Assembly (NCBI GenBank): GCA_024704765.1
Contig: JAKMXF010000188.1
Span: forward strand, 669,715 to 733,714
Origin: Oopsacas minuta
Taxonomy: Eukaryota > Animalia > Porifera
DNA: 64,000 nt
Direction of reading: 5' to 3'
The notes beneath the pieces were generated by a model, which was not told the DNA's origin, made no database searches, and saw only the letters and a program-made list of their open reading frames with translations. Made by a program: the position numbers and the translations under genes. Positions 1,871 through 64,000 of this stretch are shown in pieces; within the stretch, counting starts at the first letter, position 1; each line of letters begins with the position of its first letter.

Positions 1871-4454
1871 CCAGGGGGTTGAACTTACAAAATAATTCAA
1901 TAATATATTTGCAATATATGTATATTTGTGAATTACATTGTTCTAAATATATCTATATTATAATACTCAAAGGGGTCGTCAATTAGGAGGATAATGGATA
2001 CCTCGAGGCACAATGCGCCGAGTTCATCGCGAAGCGACGAGCCAAAGGCTCGTATTTCTATAATTCTACATTTTTAGGAACAATGAACAATCATTCAGAA
2101 AAACAAAATCAACAAAAAGTATTGAGTATCAAGTTAAGTTTCTGTGATTATCAATACAATTCTCCCATTGACTAATACAACATTGTTGCCTGGACAAGCG
2201 AAAAAAATTTACAAATATAATTCATTATCATATAAATCCACTACAGCCAAGCAGGAACTTACATAATAATGAATTGTATTTCTAAATAGTGTCCACTTGT
2301 CCGGGTTAATAATGTTACGTTAGTCAAAAGGAGAATTGTAATAATAAATTCAAAAAAATTTCTACCAAATTTGTTGAAACACTGGTTAATTTTGTCTCAA
2401 TTAGATATCACAGTAACTGACGTCTCATGCAATATATATATATACAGTTAAACCTGCCTAACGGCCACCTATGTATAACGGTCACCTGCACATAACTGCC
2501 GCCTAAAACAGTCCCCTCCGATTTCCATTATAATGACCTCAGTGTAGCGGCATAAACATAGCCTCTCGGCCACCTGGTCATTGAAATTTTGGAATATGAA
2601 GCTAAAATGTAACATAATTACATAACATAAATACCTAGCAAAATTTGCTAATATTTCACTTTAAACCTCTCAAAACCCTAGGAGGAGTAATGAATAAATC
2701 GGTGAAAACGAATCTATTCTGTTAACCGAAATTTGTATATTCAGTTAGAAAGAGCACATTATGTGATTAGGGCATTAGCCCTTCTTCTAAAAATAAAGTC
2801 ATTCATTTTACTAATAACTGCACTCTCTGACATCTGATTCGTTATGTTCAAATTATCCAAGCTTACGAAATATAAAGATCGCAAATATTCATTCAATCTA
2901 TTCACCCAATTCCAATAATATTTATTCAGTGCTTCTAAATCAGTGAGACTCAGCACCGGTTCACTCACTAACTCTCAGCTCACTGCGGCTGTGGTCCGGT
3001 TGGGAACTGCTTGGTGCCTCAGAACGTGATTCAGAGGGACAATGTGTCATTGGCATATAACAAATTGAATTGATTTCATGGACTTAATTTATGACCTTCT
3101 GGTAGTTCTGGAAATGAAAATATTAAAAGTAAAGAAAAGACTGCTCCATAATTAACACCAATATTATATATATTATATGGCTAAGTCATAGGAATCCGTG
3201 GTTTTAATAAAGTAACCCTTTCCAAATGTTCATGAAATTTTCGATGAGATTAGTGTGGCGGAGTTCGAAAAAGGTTAACAAACACTGATTTAATCTATAC
3301 AAGGTTTACTATACTTCCTAACATTTATCCAATATACAAGATGCAAAATACAAAGAATTAGATCTTCATAAGATAGCATTCAAATTTCCGAGACTTGGTC
3401 GCACGCTTTTCGTATAAATGCAATTTTCCTATTAATACAAGTAGGATTGAATTTCTATTCTTTCACTTCAACTAAATCACGGTTATTAGTACAAGACGCA
3501 AACTGTGAAAACATTCGATTCGCTAATATAATGCATATCGACATTGCATTATGGAAGTACCTTTGAGCCGAGTTATTTCTAATATCAAGGCAATTTATAA
3601 ATTATGGCACCCTCTGGAGTCCTTAGGGTGCTGTCTTGTGAGCAGTCCCTGTATATATCACATGATTAATAATATTTTCACAAATTTGGGTAAAATTAAG
3701 TTCCAACGTTGATTAAGTCAGCCTAAAACAGCACCCCGGCACCCTGTACTCCAAACCCATAAAGAGTATGGTGAACATTGTCCAGGATTTTAATACACAA
3801 GTACAGGATTCTCGAGATTCTGAATAGAAGGATATACAATTATTTGATTAGAGATCAACGCCCACCCAAAGTACGATTGCTACACATCATAATTCATTTT
3901 AGCACCTGCATGCAGATAATACAACATTTGCTTTTTACCTTTCACTTTTTTAAAATATCCAGGAATTTCGTAAGCTGTCTATTAATACAAGCGGCAACCA
4001 TAATAAATGATGTTTCAAGCTATTTCTAATACAAAATTTAACATCCATTTATAGTGATATACATATAGTTGTCAAATAATATTGTGTCCAGGAAAATCAA
4101 GGACTTTTCGATAAAAAGTGATTCATTGACCAGGATAATTTGGACCAAAACAACGATTTTAACTTGCAACACATAAGAAGAAAAACAATATAAGGTAACT
4201 TCAATAAGTTATATTTATCTATAACAAACATAAACACCAATATAATATCACTAATATAATAAAGTCAGAAGCATCAACACAAACTACACATAGAAGTATA
4301 TAACTCATACAGTTTGGCCTAAACAGTCTCTTTAGTATAGAGCTACTATATATTTTTAGTGATTATTCACATTAGTAAAAATGCATACAAGTCAGGCCTA
4401 GAACAGCTACAGTACTAATTATATTGAGTATGTTTGAATTCAGACACATAGTGG

Positions 4455-7400
4455 TTATTGGGGGGGAGGCTGGTACCCGTAAGGAGGGTAATAGGCTCCG
4501 TACATTGGGTAGTAGGGCATTGGCTGAGCTCCGGGTTGTTGTGGTGGGTGTTGTCCGGGCATTACTCCTGGCTGTGGGGGACCCTGTTGAGGCTGAGCAT
4601 AGGGGTAATTAGGGGGAGGAGCTCCGTACACGGGATAGCCAGGGTAGTAGGGGGTAGGATTTGAAGGATGCGGTGTCACTATTGAGCTTGGAGCAGGCTG
4701 TTGAGGGGGAGGAGCTACAGCACGGGGAGGCATAGGCATCTGTTGAGGGGGAGGAGCAGTCGTTGCACCGGCTGGGACGTATGCAGCTGGACGACCTGGA
4801 CCAGAAGGTTTCTTAGAGCTCGACAAAACTTTATCTAAATCTTTACAGAGATCATCTTTCTCTGTCCGTCTGGCAAATGTCAGGTCCCCTACCCTCTGTT
4901 GACACTTGAGTAGCAGATTAGTCAGATCTCCGTAGAACTTAGCTCCCTCCTCTAGGTTTCCGATAAGCTCATTGAACGCTTCGTATCCACTCTGTAGATC
5001 TTTCAGAACCTTCTCTCTGGCAGCTGCACCATCTCCTTGCTGACACTCATTGACAAACTGAGCGTTGACCTGTTTGATCTGCTCAGTGAGAGCTGATCCT
5101 TTCGTCACAGACTCTTGTACTTGCTGTTGTAGCGAGGAATATGTCTCTTGTAGGTGAGTCATAGAGATAGTCTCTTCGTCTACTGAACCCTCAGTCTTGA
5201 GACACTCTAGGAATTTGTTCGCTGGACTAGGTAAGTTGTCTCTGAGAGAAGATTCGATTACCTCTCTCTCTGCCTTCAAGGTTTCAGACTATATAAGAGA
5301 TATTATGAAATATATACTAAGCATAAATACTAAAAAATAATATATTACCTGTTCATATAGCTGCTTTAAGTTTTGTACAACTTGAGCTGAAGAGCCAGAT
5401 CTGCTCGCCGCTCCGCTAGTAGGAATAGAAGCTACTACAGAAGCTTGATCTTGGCTGAGAATTCCAATAGCTTCTCGATTGGCTTGAAACTTGCTATTCA
5501 CAACCTATTACATTGTGACGTCATAAAATATTGGATAAAACATTCATGTGACGTTATGGAGGGATTTGAAATTTTTGGAACTTAAGAAATACATCCAACA
5601 GTACTCGCCGACTACTCGACATTGGAGAAATTTATAGTTGGTGCTTTCTAACGTCGCTTATCTAAACATTAACTAGCATCAAGGTGGATAACATCACAAA
5701 TATACTACTTGTAGATGCAACTCTAATAAGCTTAACCGATTACGACAGAAGTATTACGTTCGTAATGAAAAGGAACACTAAATTTTTACCACCATCTTCA
5801 TCCAATTCCAATACCAAAAACGATATTACAGCACTTTTTTTGGCGTCATAAAATCACACATTTTCCCGGCAGTATTCGGTTAATCCTAATTCAGTAAATC
5901 ACATTGAGTTAAACTTTAAGTAAAGTTAGCTAGGCACATGATATAACCATGGATGGTCCAGATCACGCGAGAATATATAGTATAATAGACAATTAATACA
6001 ATTATCTTGCCTTATCAGCTCCAGTCGCACTTGATAGAATGCCTTGATACTTAGAAATATCAGCTCTGACGTTAACTGTTAACTGAGCTGAGGGCATACG
6101 CGTCCATCTGTCTCCATACTTAGCTCTAACAATAAACAAATTAAAAGATTATGTACAGTAGTATATATCAACTCATATAATGACGTCACTGACCTACATT
6201 CCCCATCCTCTCTGTCTTCCTCGTTCAGAACTCTAACCGTCTCATCCAGGATCTCTTTGTTCCTAATCAGTAGCTCAGGTAGATTCAGTATCATTTCTTC
6301 TAACCTCACCAATCCTCCTTTGCCCCTGACCTCAGCTGATTTGTCTAGCACGGAGGGTGGGGCTCCAGTACCTGAGGTGTCCTCTAAAGCAGCTGGTAGA
6401 TTATATGACGTCAGCAGTGTAGTGAGTTCCTGTGTATTTGCACGCAGTCTTCCTATCTCAGAGTTTACAAGTCCCATCTTCCTCTGCTCATATATCAGTA
6501 GAGCTTCATTCACTTTCAATGGCATCAGCTGAGAGAATAGGTCTACGAAGTTGGATTGAGGGGCGTTGAATGGGAGAGGCTACAATAATGTTATATATCA
6601 AAATATGATATAGTCAAACTTGTCTATATCGAACAAGAAAAGGACTGACCAAAAGTGGCAATTATAGACAAATGTAGTAGTAATTTGAATATAATGGCAG
6701 TTACTATATTCCCTGCAGGATATTTAAGATAATATAGTGTGAGTAGTTAATGATGGGAACCTAACGGACTTGTCAAAGGTGGACTTAATAGAAAGTGACC
6801 GTTATAGACAGGTTTAACGCCATTTATGGACCAAAAAAATTGTGCCCACTGGCCGCGATAAAGAGGTAAATATAATGGGAGAACGGAGGGATTGCTTTTA
6901 AGTGGCCGATAAGTGCAGGTGACCGTTAAGCACGTTTGACTGTAGTAATATTAAATACTAATAAAATTATAGCCTATAAAGATACCTTAGCTAGTGCTGC
7001 CTTTCCTACTGGTTCTATTGTAGCATACTCAGGAACAGGATCACTATATATCATCTTATTATCCTTCAATTCCTTCTCTAGCTTAGTCTTAACTTTAGCC
7101 AGAACACCCTTGATATCATAGAAGCCCTCGCTTCGCTTGACAGCATCTTCTAGACAAGACACTGATTTCTTGAGTCTGGAAATGCTCTCTCCATAATTCT
7201 GATTCTCCAGTGCTACTTTAGCCTGGCTCTCTTCTGCTAGAGCAAGGAATAAACTCTGTTTTGCAGACACAATAGGAATCCATTCTTTCTCCCATTGAGC
7301 TTTGACTGAGCCCTGTTGGAAAGAGGAGAGAGTATCTGCGTAGAGATCACTGGCCTGGTGAGCTAGCTTAGCAATTATCTTCTCCTGCATCTTATCTTTA

Positions 7401-10170: not shown

Positions 10171-11356
10171 CTCTAATAGCTTTGTAAATAACTTTATACG
10201 GATAAACAGGGATGTAGAATTCGATTTTGACATTTCAAAATGTCTAACAAGATTAGTAATAATACATTTTTCTTTCTTTGCTAAAATCGATATACGGATA
10301 AACAGGGACGTAATGTTTACCAAGATTAGTAGTAATACATTTTTCTTTCTTTGTTAAAATGGATATTTAGTAGAATAATTAATATTCGTAGTTTCAATAA
10401 TCCACTATAATTAATTTGGTAAATTTAAGACAGACGATAATTTGAGATTTTTACTACTTTGAATTGTCCAATTTATCTTCTATTTTTATGTTTTTAGCAA
10501 ATATGTTTGTCATGTATATTTTGAATTTTTTAATAATCTTCCCTTTCATTTAATCCTACCACTTAGTAAAACTGGAAGTTTCTAATAGTAATATTTCATT
10601 TTGATTTACCTAGTTTACTTATGTCGATTATTATTATTTCAGAAACAATCATTTGGTAAGAGTGTTCAATTTTCTACGGCTACTGTGCGAACACTTCGTA
10701 TACGCGACCCGAGCAGCGCAAGAAAGCGAAGCTTGCTTGTTTCAATAATTTCTGATTGGTCCTTAGCTGTCTCTGGCATAGCTCAGTGTATTATTTAATA
10801 GCAATTGTAACTAGTCAATCGGGTCGAGTAGAGTTTCATGTTTGACCGGTGGAAAACATTCAATATTGTGTAAGTATAGAAGCTGTTGTAAATACTCCCT
10901 GCCTCTATCATATGTATTTCCTAAGATATTTGGTGACTAAGGTAAAGTTTTGCACCTATGTATCGAGCTGACCGCCACAGTCCTATATAAATCCTTGAAA
11001 TTGTTTCATATTTTGGCGGGCTAATTCTTGGTTTCATTCATTATAAAGATTTTCAAGACTGTTAATGCATAATACAAGTGTAATTTGATGTTTGTAGCAC
11101 AATTTCCCATTCTTTTTTATTTGTAGGACTAATTGCAATCATATTTAAGACTGCCAGAAATGCTCTAATAAATTTAAGATATATATATATATGTGAAAAT
11201 ATTCAAAATACATTTGGGTACCAATCATAAATCATATTTTTGGAATATATATATTTTCACACCTCTTCATGTCAAGCAGTTCCGTTTCATAGAATAGGGA
11301 AGTATGATTTAAATCCATTACCATATTTATAATTCGTCTTAGCTTTCACACAACAA

Positions 11357-14300
11357 ATGGCTTCAGGTGATGTGTTCACGAATATGTTCGGTAACACCTT
11401 ACTACGAATTGAAGGTGGAGTAACTAAGGAGATCGAAACATCTACTCTAATCAAAGACGGAGTAATCGCACTCTACTTTTCTGCTCATTGGTGTCCCCCC
11501 TGTCGTACCTTCACTCCTACTCTAGGTGATTGGTACAAAAAACTAACTTCTGGAAGTTTGAAAGATAAACTCGAGATTGTCTTTCTCAGCTCTGATCAGA
11601 GTGAAGAAGAGTTTAAAGACTACTACTCTAGCATGCCCTGGTGTGCTCTCCCCTATTCAGACAGGGAGAAGAAGGTTGATATTTATCTGTACTGTCATTA
11701 GCTTTATTGATTGATATATCTATTTATTTCTTAGGCTGAGCTTTCTAAGAAATTCGGTATCAAAGGTATTCCTTCTCTCATATTCCTGAACGCACAGAAC
11801 GGGAAAATAATAACACGTGAGGGGAGAGAGGTTGTGAATGAGGACCCAGAGGGGGAACAGTTCCCCTGGAAGCCAAAGTCAATTTCTGAAGTCCTCTCTT
11901 GCCTGGAAGACAAACTTGTCGACAATAAGGGAGGACAGTATAAGCTCTCTGAGATACGAAAAGATAAATATCTAGCTCTTTATATTTCAGCTCATTGGGT
12001 GGGTAGCTATATGAAATATACTGGATCCCAGTTATAAGAGACAGTAGGTCTCCGTCTAGAATACATATTCCCCTCCGGGTATGAACTTTTCGATGCCCTG
12101 ACGTCATATTCATTAGGTTCTACTGCAGTGGTTTTCCAAATGTCTTGAATTTATGATGAATATATGATGTTAGGACGGGACGCTAGGGGCGTTTGAAAAA
12201 TAAATAGGCTTAGAGACGGGTTGCGATCAAAAGCTCCGGAACACTATTCTATTGTATATTGAATTTTTGATACGTAATATAATTCTACAGTGTCCTCCTT
12301 GTAAAGTATTCACTCCTAAGCTAGTGGAGGCCTACCAGAAGCATCAGGACAAAGGTTTTGAAGTAATTTTCATATCGTTTGACAGAGATGAAGAAAGTTT
12401 TAAAGATTATTTCGAAACCATGCCATGGAAATCTGCCAATTACGCTGATGCGAACAAACTCGGACCAAAGATAGCAAGGAGATTTGGAGTGAAGGGTAAA
12501 TATTCTCTAATTTGCTTGTTTGTTGATTATTATGTGTTTATCTTTATTCATATATACATAGGTATTCCTACTCTTGTGTTAATGGATAAAAATCTTGAAG
12601 TAATTAACCAGAACGCGAGATCTTTCATAGAGCATGATGAGAAGTTTGAGGTAATAATTCGTATTTATTATATGCTGAATGATTAGCATTGATACTATGC
12701 TATATGACTTTCTAATTACAATTTATCATATATAGTGGGTATTACTTATAAGAACATATCGGTTATAAGAATATATCGGTTATAAGAATATACTTTGATA
12801 TTCCCAAGGGTGTTATCATCAGCGATAACCACTAGGCCGGATCGAGAAAAGTATACATCGTCGCTTCAACTTCTACCTAAGGCAAAAGTTGCCTTTACTC
12901 TTTTCCAGGAAAATGCGAGACATAAATTTGAAAATATTTCGAGTTGACCCTTGCAGTTTTATATTTTTGCTGTGTCACTTTCGCAAACTTGACTTTAAAT
13001 TGTCCGAATTTTCTAATTCCTTTGACTTAGCCCCTATAGATATATTATTTGGTAATAGTAAGTCGCATATTTGCTTTCGAATGATGTATTAGGCTAATTT
13101 CCATGTCCAAAGGTACTCAAGTTGTCAATATATCTTTTGCATATTCTATCATACCCTAATAATATTATCCACCCCCTTTTTTTCCGAAGATTTGCAAATG
13201 CATAATTCTTACAAAAAATAGCTATATCCTCACCAAACTTAGTATAATTCTGTATCTAGATCCAAATTCATCAATAGATTACCACAAAGAAATTTTACCA
13301 ACTTTCCTTATCTCTTGCTCTTAACTTAGTTGCCATTTATCTAGCATGGAATTTATGGTCAATTATTATATCTAAATAAAAACTCACTCAAATGACTCAT
13401 ATTATAGAGTGATTATATTCCTATAATTTATGTAATTTTGAATATGGTAGGATACACGCTTAGTATTGTAGTATTTCATCCTGTTTTTGGTTATCCTGGA
13501 CCCATCCCAGAAAATCTACTCCCGATAAAACTAGATCTATACAATCATTATAGTATGCTTAGAAATGAAGATTCTAAATCAACTAGAGATGATATAGCGA
13601 AAGAATTAACTGAGGTATTAGTGCGTATCTATAATTTGGCTTCCATACCCACAAAATCAGAGCTCCAAATATATCAGTACATCATTTCTGATATTATCGA
13701 GAGAGCTAAATATTACAGAAAAGTATCCAAAACAAGCAATATCCTGACGGTATCCAGCCTATAATTCCGAATTCAATGTCTTGTTCGACGTCTCAAGTTG
13801 CAAATGCCAAATACAAGAAGAAAAAAGTTTTGCTCTCTCGATAATATCAGAAATGATGTACTGATATATTTGGAGCTCTGATTTTGTGGGTATGGAAGCC
13901 AAATTATAGATACGCACTAATACCTCAGTTAATTCTTTCGCTATATCATCTCTAGTTGATTTAGAATCTTCATTTCTAAGCATACTATAATGATTGTATA
14001 GATCTAGTTTTATCGGGAGTAGATTTTCTGGGATGGGTCCAGGATAACCAAAAACAGGATGAAATACTACAATACTAAGCGTGTATCCTACCATATTCAA
14101 AATTACATAAATTATAGGAATATAATCACTCTATAATATGAGTCATTTGAGTGAGTTTTTATTTAGATATAATAATTGACCATAAATTCCATGCTAGATA
14201 AATGGCAACTAAGTTAAGAGCAAGAGATAAGGAAAGTTGGTAAAATTTCTTTGTGGTAATCTATTGATGAATTTGGATCTAGATACAGAATTATACTAAG

Positions 14301-16326
14301 TTTGGTGAGGATATAGCTATTTTTTGTAAGAATTATGCATTTGCAAATCTTCGGAAAAAAAGGGGGTGGATAATATTATTAGGGTATGATAGAATATGCA
14401 AAAGATATATTGACAACTTGAGTACCTTTGGACATGGAAATTAGCCTAATACATCATTCGAAAGCAAATATGCGACTTACTATTACCAAATAATATATCT
14501 ATAGGGGCTAAGTCAAAGGAATTAGAAAATTCGGACAATTTAAAGTCAAGTTTGCGAAAGTGACACAGCAAAAATATAAAACTGCAAGGGTCAACTCGAA
14601 ATATTTTCAAATTTATGTCTCGCATTTTCCTGGAAAAGAGTAAAGGCAACTTTTGCCTTAGGTAGAAGTTGAAGCGACGATGTATACTTTTCTCGATCCG
14701 GCCTAATAACCACTGTATTGTCATTTCACTTCAACACTGATCATGAATGAATTAACAAATCCGGATACGTATTATACGGTATTGCTTTGAATAAGTGCCG
14801 GGGGTAGCACTACACGAAATAAGTAACCGCCAGAGCGCTTATTCAGAGCAATACGAAGGGCATTAGGATCGTACGATCACGATCGCGATACTTTTTTGAC
14901 GATCTGGCGACGATCGGCAACCATTGTTTTATTAAGGATCGGATGTAAGATCGCAATCCTTTTTTGCACAAAAATTTTCGATCATATTTTCGATCATTTT
15001 TGTACTTTGAATGCTACTATCATTAGCGTTTTGTATACTTAGGTTATTGTTCCAAATTTGTGTTCAACAATCAGTAATATTCGTTCGTAGAATGCGTTGA
15101 TTCTCCACCTAAGTTTCTTTTGGCATAAGAAATGATGTAACTATCAAAAATATATGTCTTGAATATTACACAAACGATCGGAAAAATGATCGAGATCGGG
15201 ATCGCGATCGTTTTGAGATAAGGATCTTGATCGGGATCGCGATCTTGTTTAACACGATCGACTAATGCCTTAGTAATACGTTACACTAATAACGCTATTT
15301 GTAATATACAATTGACAACAGCTATCTCGAACACAAAGAGCAGTTCAACTGTAATCCAAATATTATAAGTATAGGATGCTGATTTCTCTTTAGAGTTCGA
15401 GTTAGGGAAGTACGTATATCTGAACCCTGCATAGCAGTATTCCTTAATTTTATTTACTTATAGAATTTTCCATGGAGTGCTAATATCTGTACTACTCTCA
15501 ATTCTGAAAAGGATTTTGCTTATCTAGTTAGTCACCCAGCTGTTCTCTACACAGTATCAGGTGAGTAGTAGCAATAGACCATTTGGATCGATTCAAAAAA
15601 GGTAAAGTGTAATCTCGTTTGAGTAATTCCATCTTTCCCCAAAGGTTAACGCATGTTACCTCTATATCCCTATTGTCATGTCTACCTACCTACCTCCACC
15701 TCCTCTGCATTTAAGAATACATAATATATTCTCCAATCTTTAAAATTATAACTTTATTGAGTATTGGGCTACTGTTATTTATAGAGATTCAGCTCCACCC
15801 CCGCATCTGATTTAGCCTACTAATAATCAATATACTCAGTGTAATTCAGCTATTGGGTGTATAAGCTAGTTAAGAATACAATAGAGATGACGTCTAGAAT
15901 ATTATAATATTAAAATTGACATTTATATATTTTATGAATGAACCAATTTTCCCGTTGATTGTCACAAAATAAATAATTTTGTAATTAATCCTTCCTACCT
16001 TTCATACACATATTTATCAAACAGATGAATCGAAGTTTAACGAAGCTATGCAAATCCTGGATGCTGTCAGTAAGAAATTCATTGCTAACAAACCTCGGGA
16101 CGCAATAATCAATTTCTTCTGCTATGTCGATGACGAAAAGGCTAACAGTGCATGTAAGGAGTTCTTCCACAAGGGGTGTGGTGGTGTAGCAAATCAGGTG
16201 TTTATAATAGACCCTCAAGAGCAGATGAAGAACAAAGAACCTATCACAAAACTAGATGTGGACTCAATCTACACTCAAGCAATGTCGTACATTGAGGGAG
16301 AGCTCGATATGGTTAAAGTCGACTAA
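11357..16326 (+). CDS. NXN: Nucleoredoxin-like protein with tandem thioredoxin-fold (WCPPCR / WCPPCK) domains; at least 5 exons, one internal exon not located
   Basis: Exons 11357-11674 (MASGDV...[13 protein letters not shown]...[15 protein letters not shown]), 11735-11998 ([19 protein letters not shown]...[11 protein letters not shown]...YISAHW), 12291-12495 (CPPCKVFTP...[19 protein letters not shown]...), 12562-12650 ([16 protein letters not shown]...HDEKFE) and the terminal exon 16025-16326. The terminal exon resembles the nucleoredoxin C-terminal region: [17 protein letters not shown]...[11 protein letters not shown]. Order and spacing match vertebrate NXN. Exon 4 ends in phase 0 but the terminal exon needs phase 1, so at least one small exon is missing between 12651 and 16024. 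Confidence 0.72.
12833..14705. mobile_element. Foldback-type transposable element: two perfect 874-bp inverted arms (12833-13706, 13832-14705), a 125-bp unique spacer, and an 8-bp TSD ATAACCAC
   Basis: The arms are reverse-complement identical across all stretches checked. ORF pairs 12889-13092(+)/14446-14724(-) and 13438-13764(+)/13759-14100(-) translate identically. Arm termini are taggccggatcgag...ctcgatccggccta. The flanking direct repeat ataaccac sits at 12825-12832 and 14706-14713. Confidence 0.75.
14858..15269. mobile_element. Candidate non-autonomous DNA transposon / MITE with GATCG-rich subterminal repeats
   Basis: Imperfect TIRs ggcattag(-)gatcgt at 14858 and acgatcgactaatgcc ending at 15269. 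Both ends are packed with GATCG / CGATCGCGATC motifs. An adjacent 18-bp-stem hairpin lies at 14786-14858. No clear TSD was seen. Confidence 0.4.
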
Positions 16327-29504: not shown

Positions 29505-30186
29505 TTATACACGTTATTAATTTATGTACTGTTTCAGCAAATATATTGCAACGTCATAAAGTGCTCGACAATATCAAAATTTGTTGATTATTAGCCAACA
29601 TCTTCGATTTCGATTCCTGAAACAGAGGCATAGCCTCTATAAAGAAGGTAATGTTTAGGTGGCTTACTAAGTCATTAGGCTTGGGATTTGGTTACCACTG
29701 AGCCACCTAATTTGTCGAGAACTGCAAATTGAATCAGAATTTCGCATTTTCCAGTTTCTCATATGTAAATTTATTTTTGCTTTAATGAATACAAGTAAGC
29801 AAATATTTGAAATCTTGAAATAATCATATAGACTTGCTTAACGCTTATACATAGGTAATCAAGTACGCTCACTACCGCCTCACTAAGCTGAATCCAAATT
29901 TTGCATTTTCAAGTTTCTTATATGTAAATAGTTGTTGTTCTTATAGTTGTTGTTTTTATGAATGTAAAGTGAACAAATGTCTAAATTGCCACAACAACTC
30001 CGTGTTCAATGGTTATCCTAGTGTAAGGGGTACGCAGTTTTCAATTACGATGATTGATTGTCAACAACGTCTTGTGAATATTAGTGTATCTATTATTTCT
30101 AGATGCCTACTTCTAGTGCAACTGGAGAAGTTGAATTTGAGCTTCAAATCAGACAATTAATACATAAAATTGAAATTCAGTTTTGT

Positions 30187-30757
30187 GAAACAAACGTAAT
30201 CCAATATACTGTAAACAAACGTAATCCAATATACTGTAAACAAACGTAATCCAATATACTGTAAACAAACGTAATCCAATATACTGTAAACAAACGTAAT
30301 CCAATATACTGTAAACAAACGTAATCCAATATACTGTAAACAAACGTAATCCAATATACTGTATACAAACGTAATCCAATATACTGTAAACAAACGTAAT
30401 CCAATATACTGTAAACAAACGTAATCCAATATACTGTAAACAAACGTAATCCAATATACTGTAAACAAACGTAATCCAATATACTGTATACAAACGTAAT
30501 CCAATATACTGTAAACAAACGTAATCCAATATACTGTAAACAAACGTAATCCAATATACTGTAAACAAACGTAATCCAATATACTGTAAACAAACGTAAT
30601 CCAATATACTGTAAACAAACGTAATCCAATATACTGTAAACAAACGTAATCCAATATACTGTAAACAAACGTAATCCAATATACTGTAAACAAACGTAAT
30701 CCAATATACTGTAAACAAACGTAATCCAATATACTGTATACAAACGTAATCCAATAT
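30187..30757. repeat. Minisatellite: 25-bp unit AAACAAACGTAATCCAATATACTGT in about 23 tandem copies
   Basis: Direct reading of the sequence. Copies are near-identical, with a recurring A-to-T variant (tgtatacaaacg) at copies spaced 5 and 10 units apart (30361, 30486, 30736). The three overlapping minus-strand ORFs here are frame artefacts. Confidence 0.95.
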
Positions 30758-31066
30758 GAAATATAGTAACTGAAGTCAACGTTAGTTGAGGAGAATTATA
30801 TAAAATGGTGAATTCTTTTGGATTGATATAAAATAAGGGTGCCCGTATCTTGGAGGTCCGGATCTCGGAGGTTCGACTGTATTACATTTATCTTAGAATA
30901 ACTTGAATAACTTGACATTAACCTCCTTCTCACAGGGTCCCATTGAACTGGCTCATGTGTCTACTCATCTTCTATATATTTCAATCTACACATTTTCCAT
31001 CAAATGTCTCAATATAATTATACTTAATGTCTTTTATTCTATCCTAATAAGCTCCATCTACACAGC

Positions 31067-31896: not shown

Positions 31897-34800
31897 GCTC
31901 TTTTAGGTCACAATGTATTAATATTCGCTTACGGTGTAACTAATGCTGGTAAGACCTACACTATGGCTGGTACTCGATCTAATCCAGGAGTTCTTCCACG
32001 AGCTCTCGACAGTATCTTCCAAGCAATAGAGCACCAACAACCTACTAACATATTTTACAAACCTAGAGGTGAGGCTATACATACTTATTTATTATTATAC
32101 GAGCCGCTTCGCTTATTTGCGGTTTGCGAACATTTTGTGTCCACATGGGACTCGGCAATTCATGCCTCGAAGTTAGCAAAGTAGTAAATTGCAAAATTGA
32201 ATTGATGAATTAATATTCCTATTTGTTTTACTTTATATTCATAAAAACAACCAAAAATTTACATATGATTAATTCAAAAGTGTTAAAATCAGATTCAGCA
32301 CTTTCGATATATTTTTGCCAAGTTTTATTCAATTTTGTATACTTTCTTGGTATACAGCCATAGTTGGGCGACATCTCAGTATTGAGAAATCAGAATTCAA
32401 TACAATATTGCATAAATCCTTTCCTTGACAACAGACAAATAGACAAACAAACAAGCAAATATGGCAATTTAATAATATACAGGGTACCTCAAAAGTTCTG
32501 CAACAAATTTTTACACCAATTTTTTATATCAAACCATAATTCAACTGCTGTTAAATTCATACTTATGGACAAAGGCTATATAATATATTCAATAAACTGT
32601 GATAGTTCAATTCTGGTCTTTTGTTATGTCAGGTATATCTGAACTACAGAAGAGGTCTCCTATTATTCATTTATTTCTAAATGGTAAGAAGCAGAATCAA
32701 ATTCTAAAAGCCCTTGGTTCACCGAAATTTTCACCATCGTTGATATCCCACACGATAAAACGATATATTGAGACAGGCGATATCGTAGATAAGCAACGAT
32801 CAGGTCGGCCAAGAACAATTAGGACTCCTGCTAACAAGAAAAAGGTTCGTCAGATTTTAACTCGTCGGCCCACGATGTCGGAATAGATAAGGAATCTGCT
32901 CGACGAATAATCAAGAAAGACTTAGGTATGAAATGTTTCAAACGAAGTAGAGTAGAGTCTCTTAATGGCCAGGGAATTAATAAGAGAATCCAAAGATGTC
33001 GTAGACTGCTGGATCGACTCAAAAATGTCAACAGTGATTCAATTGTATTTTCGGATGAGAAGATCTTCTGTATTGAGGAGAAGTGGAACTCTCAAAAATT
33101 CGCGGGTTTATTCCTTAACACGTAATGACATCCCAGAAAACTTAAGAAGTGTCCAGAAATTACAACACCCAAAAGTATTATGGTGGGCGGGAATTTCAGT
33201 TTTTGGGAAAACTCCGTTAGTATTCATACCCAAAGGTACAAAAATTAATGCTCAGGTATACAAAGATATTATACTGGAGAAACATGTCTTAGCAATTGGT
33301 TTGACCTTCATGAAAAACAAGGCATGGCTATTTCAACAGGATGGTGCACCGGCTCATACCGCTAAAATATCTCAAGATTGGTTGTCAAGTAAGATCCCAG
33401 CGTGTTTGAACCGTGACGAATGGCCCCCTTCAAGTCCTGACCTAAACCCTTGTGATTATTATTTGTGGGGAAGACTAGAGACACTAGTAAACAATAGATC
33501 CCACAACAGTATTCCAGCACTAAAACGAGCGTTAGAGAAAGCTTGATGCGAATTAGATCAGGATGAGGTCGCTCGGGCATGCAAATTATTTCTATCCAGA
33601 CTTAAAGATTGTCTGAAGGCCGGAGGGAATAGATTTGAAAACAAGTAGAGCCAAATATTTTCGTATATGATAGTTAGACATAATAGCATTTTCTTAACAA
33701 AATATTAGTCTGGTTATATGCTTTACATGTATAAGAATTACATTTAAATTTTGTTGCAAAACTTTTGAGACCCCCTGTAGATTATTGATTATGCTTTAAT
33801 CGTTGCGAATCTTACGATATTGCCCCACTCTGTTATCCCTGGCCTTCTAAAAGTAAACCTGTGAACTATGCTTCAATTCAGAGAAATTAATATAATATAC
33901 GGTGTACCTGCATAAACCGATACTCGTTTGGGACATGAAAATTTTGTCGGATTATGCAGGTGAATTTGTATTGTCGAATGCTGTTTCAGATCCGAAACTC
34001 TGTGTCGGATTATAAGGTGTTCTGGATTATAAGGTGTTCTGGATTATAAAGGTGTCGGTTTATGCAGGTTCCACTGTAGTCATAATATATAGGGGCTCAT
34101 AGATTTGCATCGCTAAAATAATCGATTTTGATGCTTCCTGAAATAACGAATTGTAGATTTGGCTAATCATATCAAATAGTTCGATTTTTTAGAGTAAAAT
34201 ATATACATTAACTCTGCCCGCTACTGATATAACATTACCTTATATTAAACATAAAGCAGCTGTGTTGCATGTGTTTTAGAAGTCACAATATGAACTATTT
34301 CTGTAGCTTTAATGCTTTATATACATACATGCATTATTATCCCTAATTCATACTTTTCCGTGATTTTTGATATTTAATGGCTCTCTTACAATTATATAGG
34401 GTTCGCTAATACAGTACGACTAGATAGAGAGAGTGCAGATCATGAAGCAGTTAAAAAGCGCAAGTTCTTGTCCAGAAAACTAACTAGACATAATCTTATT
34501 TCTGATCTAAGCAAGCTGTCAGATGGCACTGATTCTCAGACCTCCACTATATTCTCTACTCACCCTAGTGACCAGGAAATGGGAGAATCCTTAAAAAGCT
34601 CTAGAATTAATCCAGATCCCTTAGACTGTAGGTAGGTATATCTCTTAATATAAATTGCTGTAATTCGGCATAACATTCCATAATTAATTGGATTCATTAT
34701 ATATTGTAGTGCTCTGGAGATGGAGCACAATGAAGCTAGCTATTCAATATGGGTATCCTTTGTGGAGATACATAACGAATCGATATACGACCTGCTAGAT

Positions 34801-61105: not shown

Positions 61106-62318
61106 TCGGATTAGTTAATTAATCTAATTAATTAAGTGAGGTTTTTAGGTTATGAAATAAACAGGGGGCTAACGAATCAGCTGGTAATTCCTATCTTGGA
61201 TTGTAGGTAGCATCCTTTATAGGTTTGTTTACTATTGACAATTATTGTAGTTTTCTAGTTCTGTGGAATACTTTATCATATTCTCGTTTATGAAGGAAAT
61301 TATCGAACTCATTAATTCCCAATTAATAAATATAATTATACATATACTACTTTCCCGTTAAGTCTTTTGATAAGGTAGAAAGAATTGTCACATCAGCGAG
61401 TATAAAGTAATGCCAGTAAAATGTTAACCTTATTTCACATATGAGTGTGAGGTTTATTACAGACATAGATTAAGAGAATAATCTGATATTTTTCTAACAA
61501 CGATCGAGTTACACAGGTCTAATTTACATTACTCGACTATCTTTAAATTGTCGGATTTTGAAATAGCAAGGTTCCGGATTAATGAGGTTGTTTTCTGTAC
61601 AAAAACGATCCGTGAACAGAAATAATGTCGGTTTAGGGAAATTCCGGATTACACAGGTGTCGGATTACGGAGGTTCCACTGTATCTATAATATCATTTTC
61701 GCAGGTAAATTCCGCAGGCACGCTATAAGTAGCTGCAGGCCCAGCCTGGGGGGGATGAGCTGGCGCTGGCAAAGCCATTTGATAGGATTATATCTTCTAA
61801 ATTTCCACGGGAAATAAGTGTGTTGATTACTGCTACAAAGTTAAACTCATAATGATCCAGAATAATATCTGATAGATGAGTTTACTGATAATTAATACAT
61901 TAGAAAGCCAGAAATATGTTGAATATAAAAGATCAAATTTAATCTATGTCTGTAATAAACCTCACACTCATATGTGAAATAAGGTTAACATTTTACTGGC
62001 ATTACTTTATACTCGCTGATGTGACAATTCTTTCTACCTTATCAAAAGACTTAACGGGAAAGTAGTATATGTATAATCACATAATTAGAATTTATAATTA
62101 CTCTAATATGTATAATTATATTTATTAATTGGGAATTAATGAGTTCGATAATTTCCTTCATAAACGAGAATATGATAAAGTATTCCACAAAACTAGAAAA
62201 CTACAATAATTGCCAATAGTAAACAAACCTATAAAGGATGATACCTACAATCCAAGATAGGAATTACCAGCTGATTCGTTAGCCCCCTGTTAGTTTCATA
62301 ACCTAAAATCTCACTTAA
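61106..62318. repeat. Large imperfect palindrome (arms about 61106-61480 and 61940-62318, roughly 95% identical with indels) around a roughly 460-bp core
   Basis: The reverse complement of 61940-62290 reads ...ttaagtgagattttaggttatgaaactaacagggggctaacgaatcagctggtaattcctatcttggattgtaggtatcatcc.... This matches 61130-61215 and continues through ...tgtgaggtttattacagacatagattaa. The core holds a truncated Tc1-like MITE end (61545-61681) and a GC-rich segment. Confidence 0.7.
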
Positions 62319-64000
62319 TCCGAATTATAGTTTACTAGTATGTTGAAAATTTTGTTTACTTACAAGTGTGTTGAATCTAGTACACTGCTAGTATAATATT
62401 ACACAACCATAAGGCTTGCATTAACTTTTAACAACTTTTTCGTTTTCTAATAATGTTGAATTATTGAGCTTCCGACGGGCAAGGGCCTGTGCCTGCCAGG
62501 ACTTGCTGGCAGGCACAGTTAAATTTTCCGCAGGCCCGGTATGACCTGCGGATTGTTAGACTTTGTGCCAAAAATTAATTAATTAATTGATACTCCAGCA
62601 TATTACTATGCATACCTTCTCCGTATTTGAGAAATAAGAATGTACTTAGATTGTGAATACAGTGGATCCTGATCCTATCAAAATATGGTCAAGTGACCCA
62701 TCAAATTGCTGGAATTTTCATGTTGAGTATGAATATGGTTGTTAAAATTGGTGTTTACATTGATTCGATGCGATTTGAAGAATTTACAGCCTGGGAGATG
62801 TTCCGGCGATTAGCTGACCGCCCGCCCAGAAAAATAAATAATTCGCGATACCTCCATACAATACCCATATATTTTTACAATATATTTAGCTATCTCTGTG
62901 TCATTTTCATACTAGTTACTTGTATCAAATGAACAATTTTATTGCTATGCTGCCCAACTATATATGGTATATGTAGAGGAACATAATATTTACCAGTATA
63001 ATGCAATCTGTAATATACATCTGGATCAATAATTATGATATACGTACTATGCACTATTGTACATCCATTAGAATACTTATCTCTTAGGCTCTATCTCCCT
63101 CCATACATGGAAAAGTTTAGATAAATGAGAGAAGATTGAAATTCAATAATATATAACTACTGTCTTCTCAGAGTAAGCCGCGAGATCTCGTCTGTACAAT
63201 AATAAGCACCCAAGTGCTGTTCAGGGACTTTTTGTATAGGCATAGGCATCACCTCACGCTTTATCTGGCCTCGACATAACTGGTTCTGAGATATATTGGT
63301 TAAAACTCCTAAAATACCACTGGAGTAACAAGAAGGTTACATACTATAGTCTAGTTAATACACTGACTCTATGAGTCAGGGATAGAGCCATCGATGGGCC
63401 GGAAGGAACAACTGAAGAGGACCATTTATAGGGTACAGTTTCACTTAATTTTGCTATACACCTCGCTCGAGCGAAGTTATGCATATTCATTGACCTTCCT
63501 TTAATAGTATATTATAAATATTGTAATCGATAGTATCACATATTTAATTCGTAGTAAAGAATCTGATTAACAATTATTATCTGACTTCGAGGTAAAATCT
63601 GCTGAGTCCATCCACTTCTTCTGTACTTTGCACCAAGTGTTTTGTGAGCACGATGGCTAATTACAATATCATTTCGACTGGTTTCTATGGAACTAATTTT
63701 GTCCTTTAGTAATGTATTTATTCTCCTGTATTTGCAACGCTTATTTTAGCTGAATTATTCATTTACTTCACTTCTGTAAAGGATTAAATCACCCAATAAA
63801 CACTTAACAGTCTAGCTCTAACTCCTCGATTACATTACATATACGCCAATTCGTAATTTGATCAGTGGCGTAGCCACGGGGGGGCAAGGGGGGGCACTTG
63901 CCCCCCCTTCCTATTGTGAACTAACGTTTTTGTCCGGCCTTTAGTAGTGTTCCTATTTCAACCAAGTACTGGGAACTGGAATAAATTATGATTTACCATT

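Follow-up and report, generated by a model that had tools for sequence, protein, structure and literature searches.

A foldback element in the glass sponge Oopsacas minuta, probably derived from a hAT-like DNA transposon

We analysed an inverted-repeat element at positions 12825-14713 of a 64,000-nucleotide (nt) stretch of contig JAKMXF010000188.1 from Oopsacas minuta; this whole stretch is referred to below as the window. Two arms of 874 nt, the left at 12833-13706 on the forward strand and the right at 13832-14705 on the reverse strand, enclose a spacer of 125 nt (13707-13831). The unit is bracketed by two copies of ATAACCAC, at 12825-12832 and, in direct repeat, at 14706-14713, which form a perfect 8-bp target-site duplication (TSD) with T at position 2 and A at position 7. 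As set out below, a hAT-like cut-and-paste DNA transposon of O. minuta is likely to have given rise to this element, a non-autonomous foldback derivative.

The initial annotation had described the arms as identical in all the stretches that it compared. Walking inward from 12833 and 14705, complementarity is unbroken for 874 positions, with the first mismatch at 13707/13831, and in an exact alignment of the arms identity holds throughout. A repeat finder gave arms of 878 nt (12833-13710 and 13828-14705), as it tolerated one mismatch and rounded identity to 100%; the exact length is 874 nt. A perfect inverted repeat of this length cannot have arisen by chance. Complementarity ends precisely at the element ends, abutting the TSDs, and the 20-nt terminus occurs in the window at the two element ends only (0 expected, 100 shuffles). 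No other copy of the element was found within the window, and Tandem Repeats Finder (TRF) found no tandem array within 12833-14705.

Both pairs of open reading frames (ORFs) that had been reported to share translations were recovered. The ORFs at 13438-13764 (+) and 13759-14100 (-) are identical over their first 91 amino acids (aa) and overlap by 6 nt, whilst those at 12889-13092 (+) and 14446-14724 (-) have 67 aa in common. The 91-aa peptide had been thought to belong to no recognisable family. The copies in the two arms are indeed identical, but the peptide is the N-terminal domain of a ~725-aa transposase. Alignments and a tblastn search with one family member (P0024) place codons 1-89 of this transposase, encoding its N-terminal helical domain, at 13444-13710 (+), starting from the native ATG at 13444. 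The mirrored remnant of the same codons lies at 13828-14094 (-), by the ORF list and tblastn, with its ATG at 14094; the TTG starts listed for these ORFs stem from the bacterial genetic code. Judged from their sequence, the converging ORFs are mirrored gene remnants and not a gene pair.

Parent transposon and origin of the window copy

A Pfam search with the 108-aa ORF of the arm gave only noise, as did one with a 644-aa ORF. The 108-aa ORF has 14 homologues at 51-85% identity, and from the contigs of homologues, which belong to related sponge assemblies, we took the family copies L001-L006 and L008-L011. The parent is an element of ~3.2 kb that makes 8-bp TSDs and encodes a DDE transposase of ~725 aa in a single ORF free of introns; its terminal inverted repeats (TIRs) measure ~370 nt and start with TAGGCCGG. 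L003 is full length at 3222 bp. L008-L011 are four distinct loci of one assembly (ENA ERZ25071281), with elements of 3216-3224 bp at ~1897-5120 of each; they are 99.3-99.7% identical to L003 and each carries the same uninterrupted 725-aa ORF. Four such near-identical intact copies suggest that the family is now, or was very recently, active in this related glass-sponge assembly.

All copies are bounded by TAGGCCGG.../...CCGGCCTA, and the native TIRs span ~350-390 nt (349+39 nt in L003). The left and right TIRs within each of the young L008-L011 copies are 95-98% identical, and the DNA difference among family copies is 0.3-25%. Seven independent insertions of the family have these termini together with 8-bp TSDs, which bears out the earlier description of the unit as a foldback transposable element. 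The flanking repeats match at 8/8 positions in the window (ATAACCAC/ATAACCAC) and in L008 (ATGTCTAT/ATGTCTAT), at 7/8 in L011 (ATCTATTG/ATCTATAG) and L003 (CTATACAT/GTATACAT), at 6/8 in L004 (CTTTTTAC/CTGATTAC) and at 5/8 in both L009 (ATCCATAG/CTGCATGG) and L010 (TTGTGTAG/GTGTATAT). The 5/8 flanking 8-mers of L009 and L010 could stem from ectopic exchange between copies.

Internal-deletion derivatives are also present in the family (L001, L002, L004, L005 and L006). L002 lacks parent positions 1101-2094, L004 lacks positions 940-1111 and has filler in their place, and L005, L006 and L001 are more complex. A range of deletion derivatives of this kind is the expected output of faulty gap repair in cut-and-paste elements (PMC4168063). 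Around these copies we also observed PF20700 (Mutator) genes at 1-501 of L001 and at 3872-4312 and 8959-9573 of L004. They lie outside the element, no more than a few kb from the hAT-like copies, suggesting dense DNA-transposon neighbourhoods in the related sponge assemblies. A 403-aa ORF at 10580-11791 (-) of L005 contains ~270 consecutive Asp codons, and is a GAT/ATC trinucleotide array.

BLAST of the window against a full-length element assigns the left arm and spacer to parent positions 1-1005 and the right arm to positions 868-1 in inverse orientation, with a 17-nt overlap in the window. The left arm itself equals parent positions 1-874 and is colinear with full-length L003, L004 and L008. 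Its outer ~370 nt (12833-13200, +, inner boundary approximate), starting TAGGCCGGATCGAG, equal the native TIR, and a match to arm positions 1-366/373 is also present at the right ends of L002, L003 and L004. The corresponding part of the right arm is at 14338-14705 (-), again with an approximate inner boundary. What the window copy has retained of the parent is therefore the left TIR, followed by a leader of ~610 nt and by codons 1-129 of the transposase.

The spacer had been considered unique sequence. It is 125 nt long and unpaired, but it is not foreign DNA, since alignment with L001, L002, L003 and L006 shows it to continue the parent on the same strand for a further 125 nt (~codons 90-129), ending in the region of the CxC...CxC motif. 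In tblastn with the 725-aa protein the left half of the element yields three segments, each in a reading frame of its own (residues 1-92, 92-107 and 108-129), and therefore the spacer contains two frameshifts. The right arm encodes residues 1-98. It lies in the place of the parent transposase gene and native right end. Native left and right interiors diverge beyond ~position 375, and the right arm is left-type at 11/11 diagnostic columns; this arm was therefore copied from the left end and does not represent a native right end.

At the junction the multiple alignment gives ...GAAGAAGGTAAATGTTTTTGCTCTTTTGAC|AAAAAAATACC... in the parent and ...CAAGAAGAAAAAAGTTTTGCTCTCTCGAT|AATATCAGAAATG... in the window. 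A microhomology (TTTTGCTCTCTCGA, 13828-13841) marks the point where the parent forward sequence TTTTGCTCTTTTGA meets the reverse complement of arm positions 861-874 (TTTAGCTCTCTCGA). Past the shared TTTTGCTCT-T-GA, the window continues as this reverse complement (TTTAGCTCTCTCGAT AATATC). The crossover falls within the microhomology, with at least 5 identical bases (GCTCT) inside an 11/15 match, which explains the lone mismatch where the perfect arms end.

This junction signature points to template switching during DNA synthesis. We infer that a nascent strand, having copied the left end inward, switched template during synthesis across the element. The strand may have folded back at ~position 995 and primed itself at ~position 874. 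Alternatively, both ends of the break may have copied a left end while an excision gap was being repaired, after which the nascent strands would have annealed via the microhomology; the 370-nt TIRs permit the switch by which the right end could copy a left end. Gap repair after excision would be the most likely setting, with replication as an alternative. By either route the arms would have been identical from birth, the TSD would have been kept intact and formation would have taken place in situ. Template switching and slippage in gap repair are the accepted origin of defective DNA-transposon copies (PMC4168063). A foldback-type derivative of a DNA transposon is a kind of element already known, and the one in the window is in itself ordinary transposon debris in an unusually clean state. 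Its value is as a resolved case of a foldback or hairpin non-autonomous element formed from an autonomous DNA transposon, in which parent, breakpoints and microhomology are all visible.

Affinity of the transposase

The fold and the target-site pattern together suggest that the transposase family is probably hAT-like. More than 574 homologues of ~720-780 aa, at ~40% identity, were found in sponges, a barnacle, a porcelain crab, a psyllid, moths and butterflies. The invariant columns are D297 (YFDGRKD), D369 (GCDGTxVNTG), C398-x2-H401 (CxLHxNELxLRH) and E681 (HTQAVER). In the AlphaFold2 (AF2) model (predicted local distance difference test score, pLDDT, 83.9) the core is RNase H-like: beta1 and beta4 carry or precede the aspartates, the catalytic glutamate belongs to a late helix, and an all-alpha insertion of ~260 residues separates this helix from the aspartates. 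As modelled, the protein would thus combine the features expected of a hAT transposase, namely a DDE/RNase H core with an all-alpha insertion, a CxxH after the second Asp and a Hermes-like fold. The length of the flanking repeats, 8 bp in each of the seven insertions at matches of 5/8 to 8/8, also agrees with hAT. Moreover, Hermes and other hAT elements prefer the target nTnnnnAn (PMC10368747), and here T occupies position 2 in 14/14 half-sites and A position 7 in 12/14. Taking T at ~0.33, the chance of T in 7/7 events is ~4e-4.

Several results weigh against this assignment. Pfam recognised no domain at E<=0.1 in 24 family members and none at E<=1 in the sponge protein, hAT models such as DUF4371 and the dimerisation domain at the C-terminus (PF05699) included, and a search of PDB sequences with phmmer and a profile gave zero matches. 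The best Foldseek matches of the model were ISCth4 and the P element, at E ~6e-5 (P element 6.8e-5), whilst Hermes fell outside the top 50. The TIRs of ~350-390 nt are atypical for hAT elements, whose TIRs are short, ~10-25 bp, and start with YARNG; the termini of the present family, TAGGC, agree with this consensus at 4/5 positions. No precomputed Pfam domains are on record for 120 homologues (P0024-P0143), and the phrase 'DUF4371 domain-containing' in one UniRef name could not be reproduced. Nor did we find an N-terminal BED zinc finger or a recognisable hAT dimerisation motif in the transposase. A profile-sequence hhalign comparison with a hAT-type fragment of a neighbouring locus brought the second-Asp region into register, weakly (E 8e-4, probability 24%).

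In effect these proteins form a hAT-like clade that has escaped annotation and in which a helical domain at the N-terminus and a CxC-x6-CxC cluster are conserved. The element thereby draws attention to a transposase family that is widespread in Metazoa and unrecognised by Pfam, with >570 homologues, and whose elements are intact and multi-copy in glass sponges.

Age of the arms and alternative explanations

With 0 differences in 874 nt, the 95% upper bound on divergence between the arms is ~0.34%. This had been taken to imply either a recent insertion or homogenisation of the arms. A recent duplication or conversion fits the data, but the insertion is not necessarily dated by it: what arm identity dates is either the inverted duplication or the most recent conversion between the arms. 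Among the O. minuta proteins, at least 13 are annotated in this 90% cluster, one of them of 720 aa. Over the 91 residues shared by the arms, identity is 88-89% to the O. minuta transposases P0145-P0151 and 75% to P0024, so the arm sequence has not been freshly copied from any known active element. Two readings fit: a recent duplication from a copy that had already diverged or decayed, or an older foldback whose arms have been homogenised by conversion.

The second of these would make the foldback old, its arms being held identical by ongoing gene conversion as in large genomic palindromes, and arm identity would then be uninformative on age. We regard it as rather unlikely. In its favour, the arms carry lineage-specific changes at residues conserved in the family, for example LPT>LPI, as well as the 88-89% identity to the O. 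minuta transposases. In addition, the 125-nt spacer has two frameshifts and the 267-nt coding remnant in the arms has none, although there are too few sites for this contrast to reach significance. The divergence is, however, explained equally well by a decayed non-autonomous parent. Moreover, the TSD still matches at 8/8 positions in the window and is degenerate in several other copies, and long perfect palindromes with closely spaced arms are generally unstable, such that the long persistence of this one would be unexpected.

It is improbable that the structure is an assembly artefact, in which a chimeric fold-back read (a missed PacBio adapter or a template-switch chimera) put an inverted left end into a normal element and the right flank was rejoined via the TIR. 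The O. minuta assembly is a hybrid of Canu-corrected PacBio continuous long reads (CLR) and Illumina reads, assembled in SPAdes and processed with SSPACE and pilon (PMC10280926), and such a pipeline could in principle be misled by a chimera of this kind. Artefactual arms would be identical to each other, as the arms are despite being 11-12% off the annotated copies, and via the native TIRs an assembler could have regained the right flank. However, a missed-adapter chimera is symmetric about the molecule end, whereas the window has an asymmetric 125-nt spacer colinear with the parent. The 5-14-nt microhomology at the junction is far below the assembler k-mers (21-99). The exact conserved termini, the perfect TSD and the unique flanks on both sides also speak for a real insertion, as do the lack of arm differences after Illumina polishing and the frequency of deletion derivatives with similar breakpoints in the family.

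The chances are likewise poor, and if anything slightly poorer, that the element is a classical Foldback (FB) element or a P-superfamily long-TIR element such as Galileo, and not hAT-like. Its long inverted arms would fit, an 8-bp TSD is also that of P elements, and the P element transposase is among the best structural matches of the model (E 6.8e-5). Galileo proves that long-TIR, foldback-like elements may belong to the P superfamily (PMC4168063). Searches of the family for a THAP DNA-binding domain and a P-type transposase domain, by which that superfamily is recognised, found neither. The arms of FB elements consist of tandem subrepeats, and their TSD is 9 bp. A Drosophila-type FB is excluded here: TRF found no tandem subrepeats, the TSD is 8 bp and the arms share homology with the 5′ region of an autonomous element.

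An origin from two truncated copies inserted head-to-head or nested has nothing in its favour but the two inverted copies themselves and can be dismissed almost entirely, there being one outer TSD pair, no terminus or TSD at the inner junction, inner ends that join in microhomology within the coding region, and 874/874 identity of the arms against the 0.3-25% difference between family copies.

Other observations count against the reading that we prefer, of a foldback derivative of the hAT-like parent. The arm peptide differs by 11-12% from the 13 family proteins annotated in O. minuta. The foldback structure rests on a single hybrid PacBio/Illumina assembly, and two scans of JGI metagenomes, with the junction 34-mer and with the degenerate terminus, gave 0 matches. 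The empty site predicted for the insertion is ...CATCAGCGATAACCACTGTATTGTC.... In a related sponge assembly from ENA the syntenic interval (L007) is 417 bp, compared with 2809 bp in the window, and has no match to the element; its flanks are too diverged to align with the window, so the empty site cannot be read there.

Genomic setting, possible consequences and known systems

The window is eukaryotic DNA of the glass sponge O. minuta: the 754-aa ORF at 18029-20293 matches a kinase-kelch protein of this species at 100% identity. GC content is ~35%, and scans of the window for tRNAs and Rfam families gave zero matches. Split thioredoxin-like exons lie at 11357-12686, according to the ORF list. 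A cyanobacterial origin, which the GATC-rich repeats might suggest, was rejected on the strength of the missing tRNA and Rfam matches, the sparse ORFs with these split exons and the 100% protein match. The palindrome is located between two genes, with the last thioredoxin-like ORF ~140 bp away on its upstream side and the kinase gene 3.3 kb away on its downstream side. The share of DNA transposons in the O. minuta genome is 15.4% (PMC10280926).

Further repeats surround the insertion. A 17-nt tandem repeat (TTATAAGAATATATCGG, 2.8 copies, 12746-12792) ends 33 nt upstream of the insertion site, and degenerate GATC-rich repeats (GATCGNGATCG...) lie downstream at 14875-15250. Elsewhere in the window, a tandem array of a 25-nt unit occupies 30063-30887 (~33 copies, the central ones 99-100% identical). 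A second long-TIR element of ~1.17 kb, unrelated to the foldback, is found at 61131-62320. Its arms pair 61143-61345 with 62106-62308 (203 nt, 98%) and 61330-61473 with 61939-62082 (144 nt, 99%). The inverted repeat reaches outward to GTGAGG.../...CTCAC with TTAA on either side (a TTAA or TA TSD), and the centre of the element holds a 52-nt repeat in common with 34037-34088.

The foldback element in the window cannot make transposase. It has kept two complete left-type ends and full-length relatives exist in the same genome, so that its mobilisation in trans by such copies is possible in principle. In the predicted minimum free energy RNA fold, 874/874 arm positions pair with their mirror partner (-1555 kcal/mol). 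A transcript crossing the element would thus be predicted to form an 874-bp perfect double-stranded RNA (dsRNA) over the TIR, leader and 5′ coding region. At the DNA level the arms could form a hairpin or cruciform, and long perfect palindromes are potential fragile sites. The suggestions of the initial annotation that the structure may be a hairpin-RNA source and a rearrangement hotspot are both plausible.

A more specific role can be imagined by analogy with maize. The element may be a Mu killer-like locus in an early-branching animal, its 874-bp hairpin RNA (TIR, leader and first 89 codons) feeding small-RNA silencing of the intact hAT-like family; in a variant of this idea the mirrored N-terminal ORFs would act as KP-like transposase repressors. 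Transcription could come from the two inward-facing transposase leaders or by read-through from the upstream thioredoxin-like gene, and selection or conversion would explain why the arms are identical despite 11-12% divergence from active copies. We consider such a role doubtful. Dicer, Argonaute and Piwi go unmentioned in the paper on the O. minuta genome (PMC10280926). The locus would be of greater interest only if it were shown to be a source of hairpin RNA that silences the family.

Compared with hAT elements such as Hermes and Ac, the family shares the 8-bp TSD with nTnnnnAn, termini starting TAG and a DDE transposase with CxxH and an all-alpha insertion, and its predicted transposase fold appears closest to that of Hermes. 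Unlike them, it gives no Pfam match to the hAT dimerisation, BED and DUF4371 domains, having instead of a BED finger a helical N-terminus with CxC-x6-CxC, and its native TIRs are ~370 nt, not 10-25 nt. As with Ds-type hAT elements, there are internal-deletion derivatives with short junction homologies, as would come from abortive gap repair; the window copy differs from these in being an inverted duplication and not a simple deletion.

With Galileo and FB of Drosophila, whose structural variants have been ascribed to template switching, slippage and exchange in repair (PMC4168063), the window element shares arms that are very long relative to the element and a potential for rearrangement (PMC4168063). 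Unlike those of FB, its arms are unique sequence from a hAT-like parent.

There is also an architectural parallel with maize Mu killer and the inverted duplications of Ac/Ds, in which one TIR and the 5′ part of the transposase gene are duplicated in inverse orientation (PMC3440606; bioRxiv 10.1101/2020.01.07.897926). These have been shown experimentally to be transcribed, giving rise to small interfering RNAs (siRNAs) that silence the family (PMC3440606; bioRxiv 10.1101/2020.01.07.897926). The window has the same arrangement, with a TIR and the 5′ transposase region inverted, and the 720-aa protein and 12 other family proteins are annotated in O. minuta. Unlike Mu killer, which is not a TSD-bounded mobile unit, the window element keeps both termini and its TSD; it also belongs to a sponge. 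Given that its architecture matches these triggers of heritable silencing in maize, the element offers a concrete locus at which to ask whether hairpin small RNAs police sponge DNA transposons.

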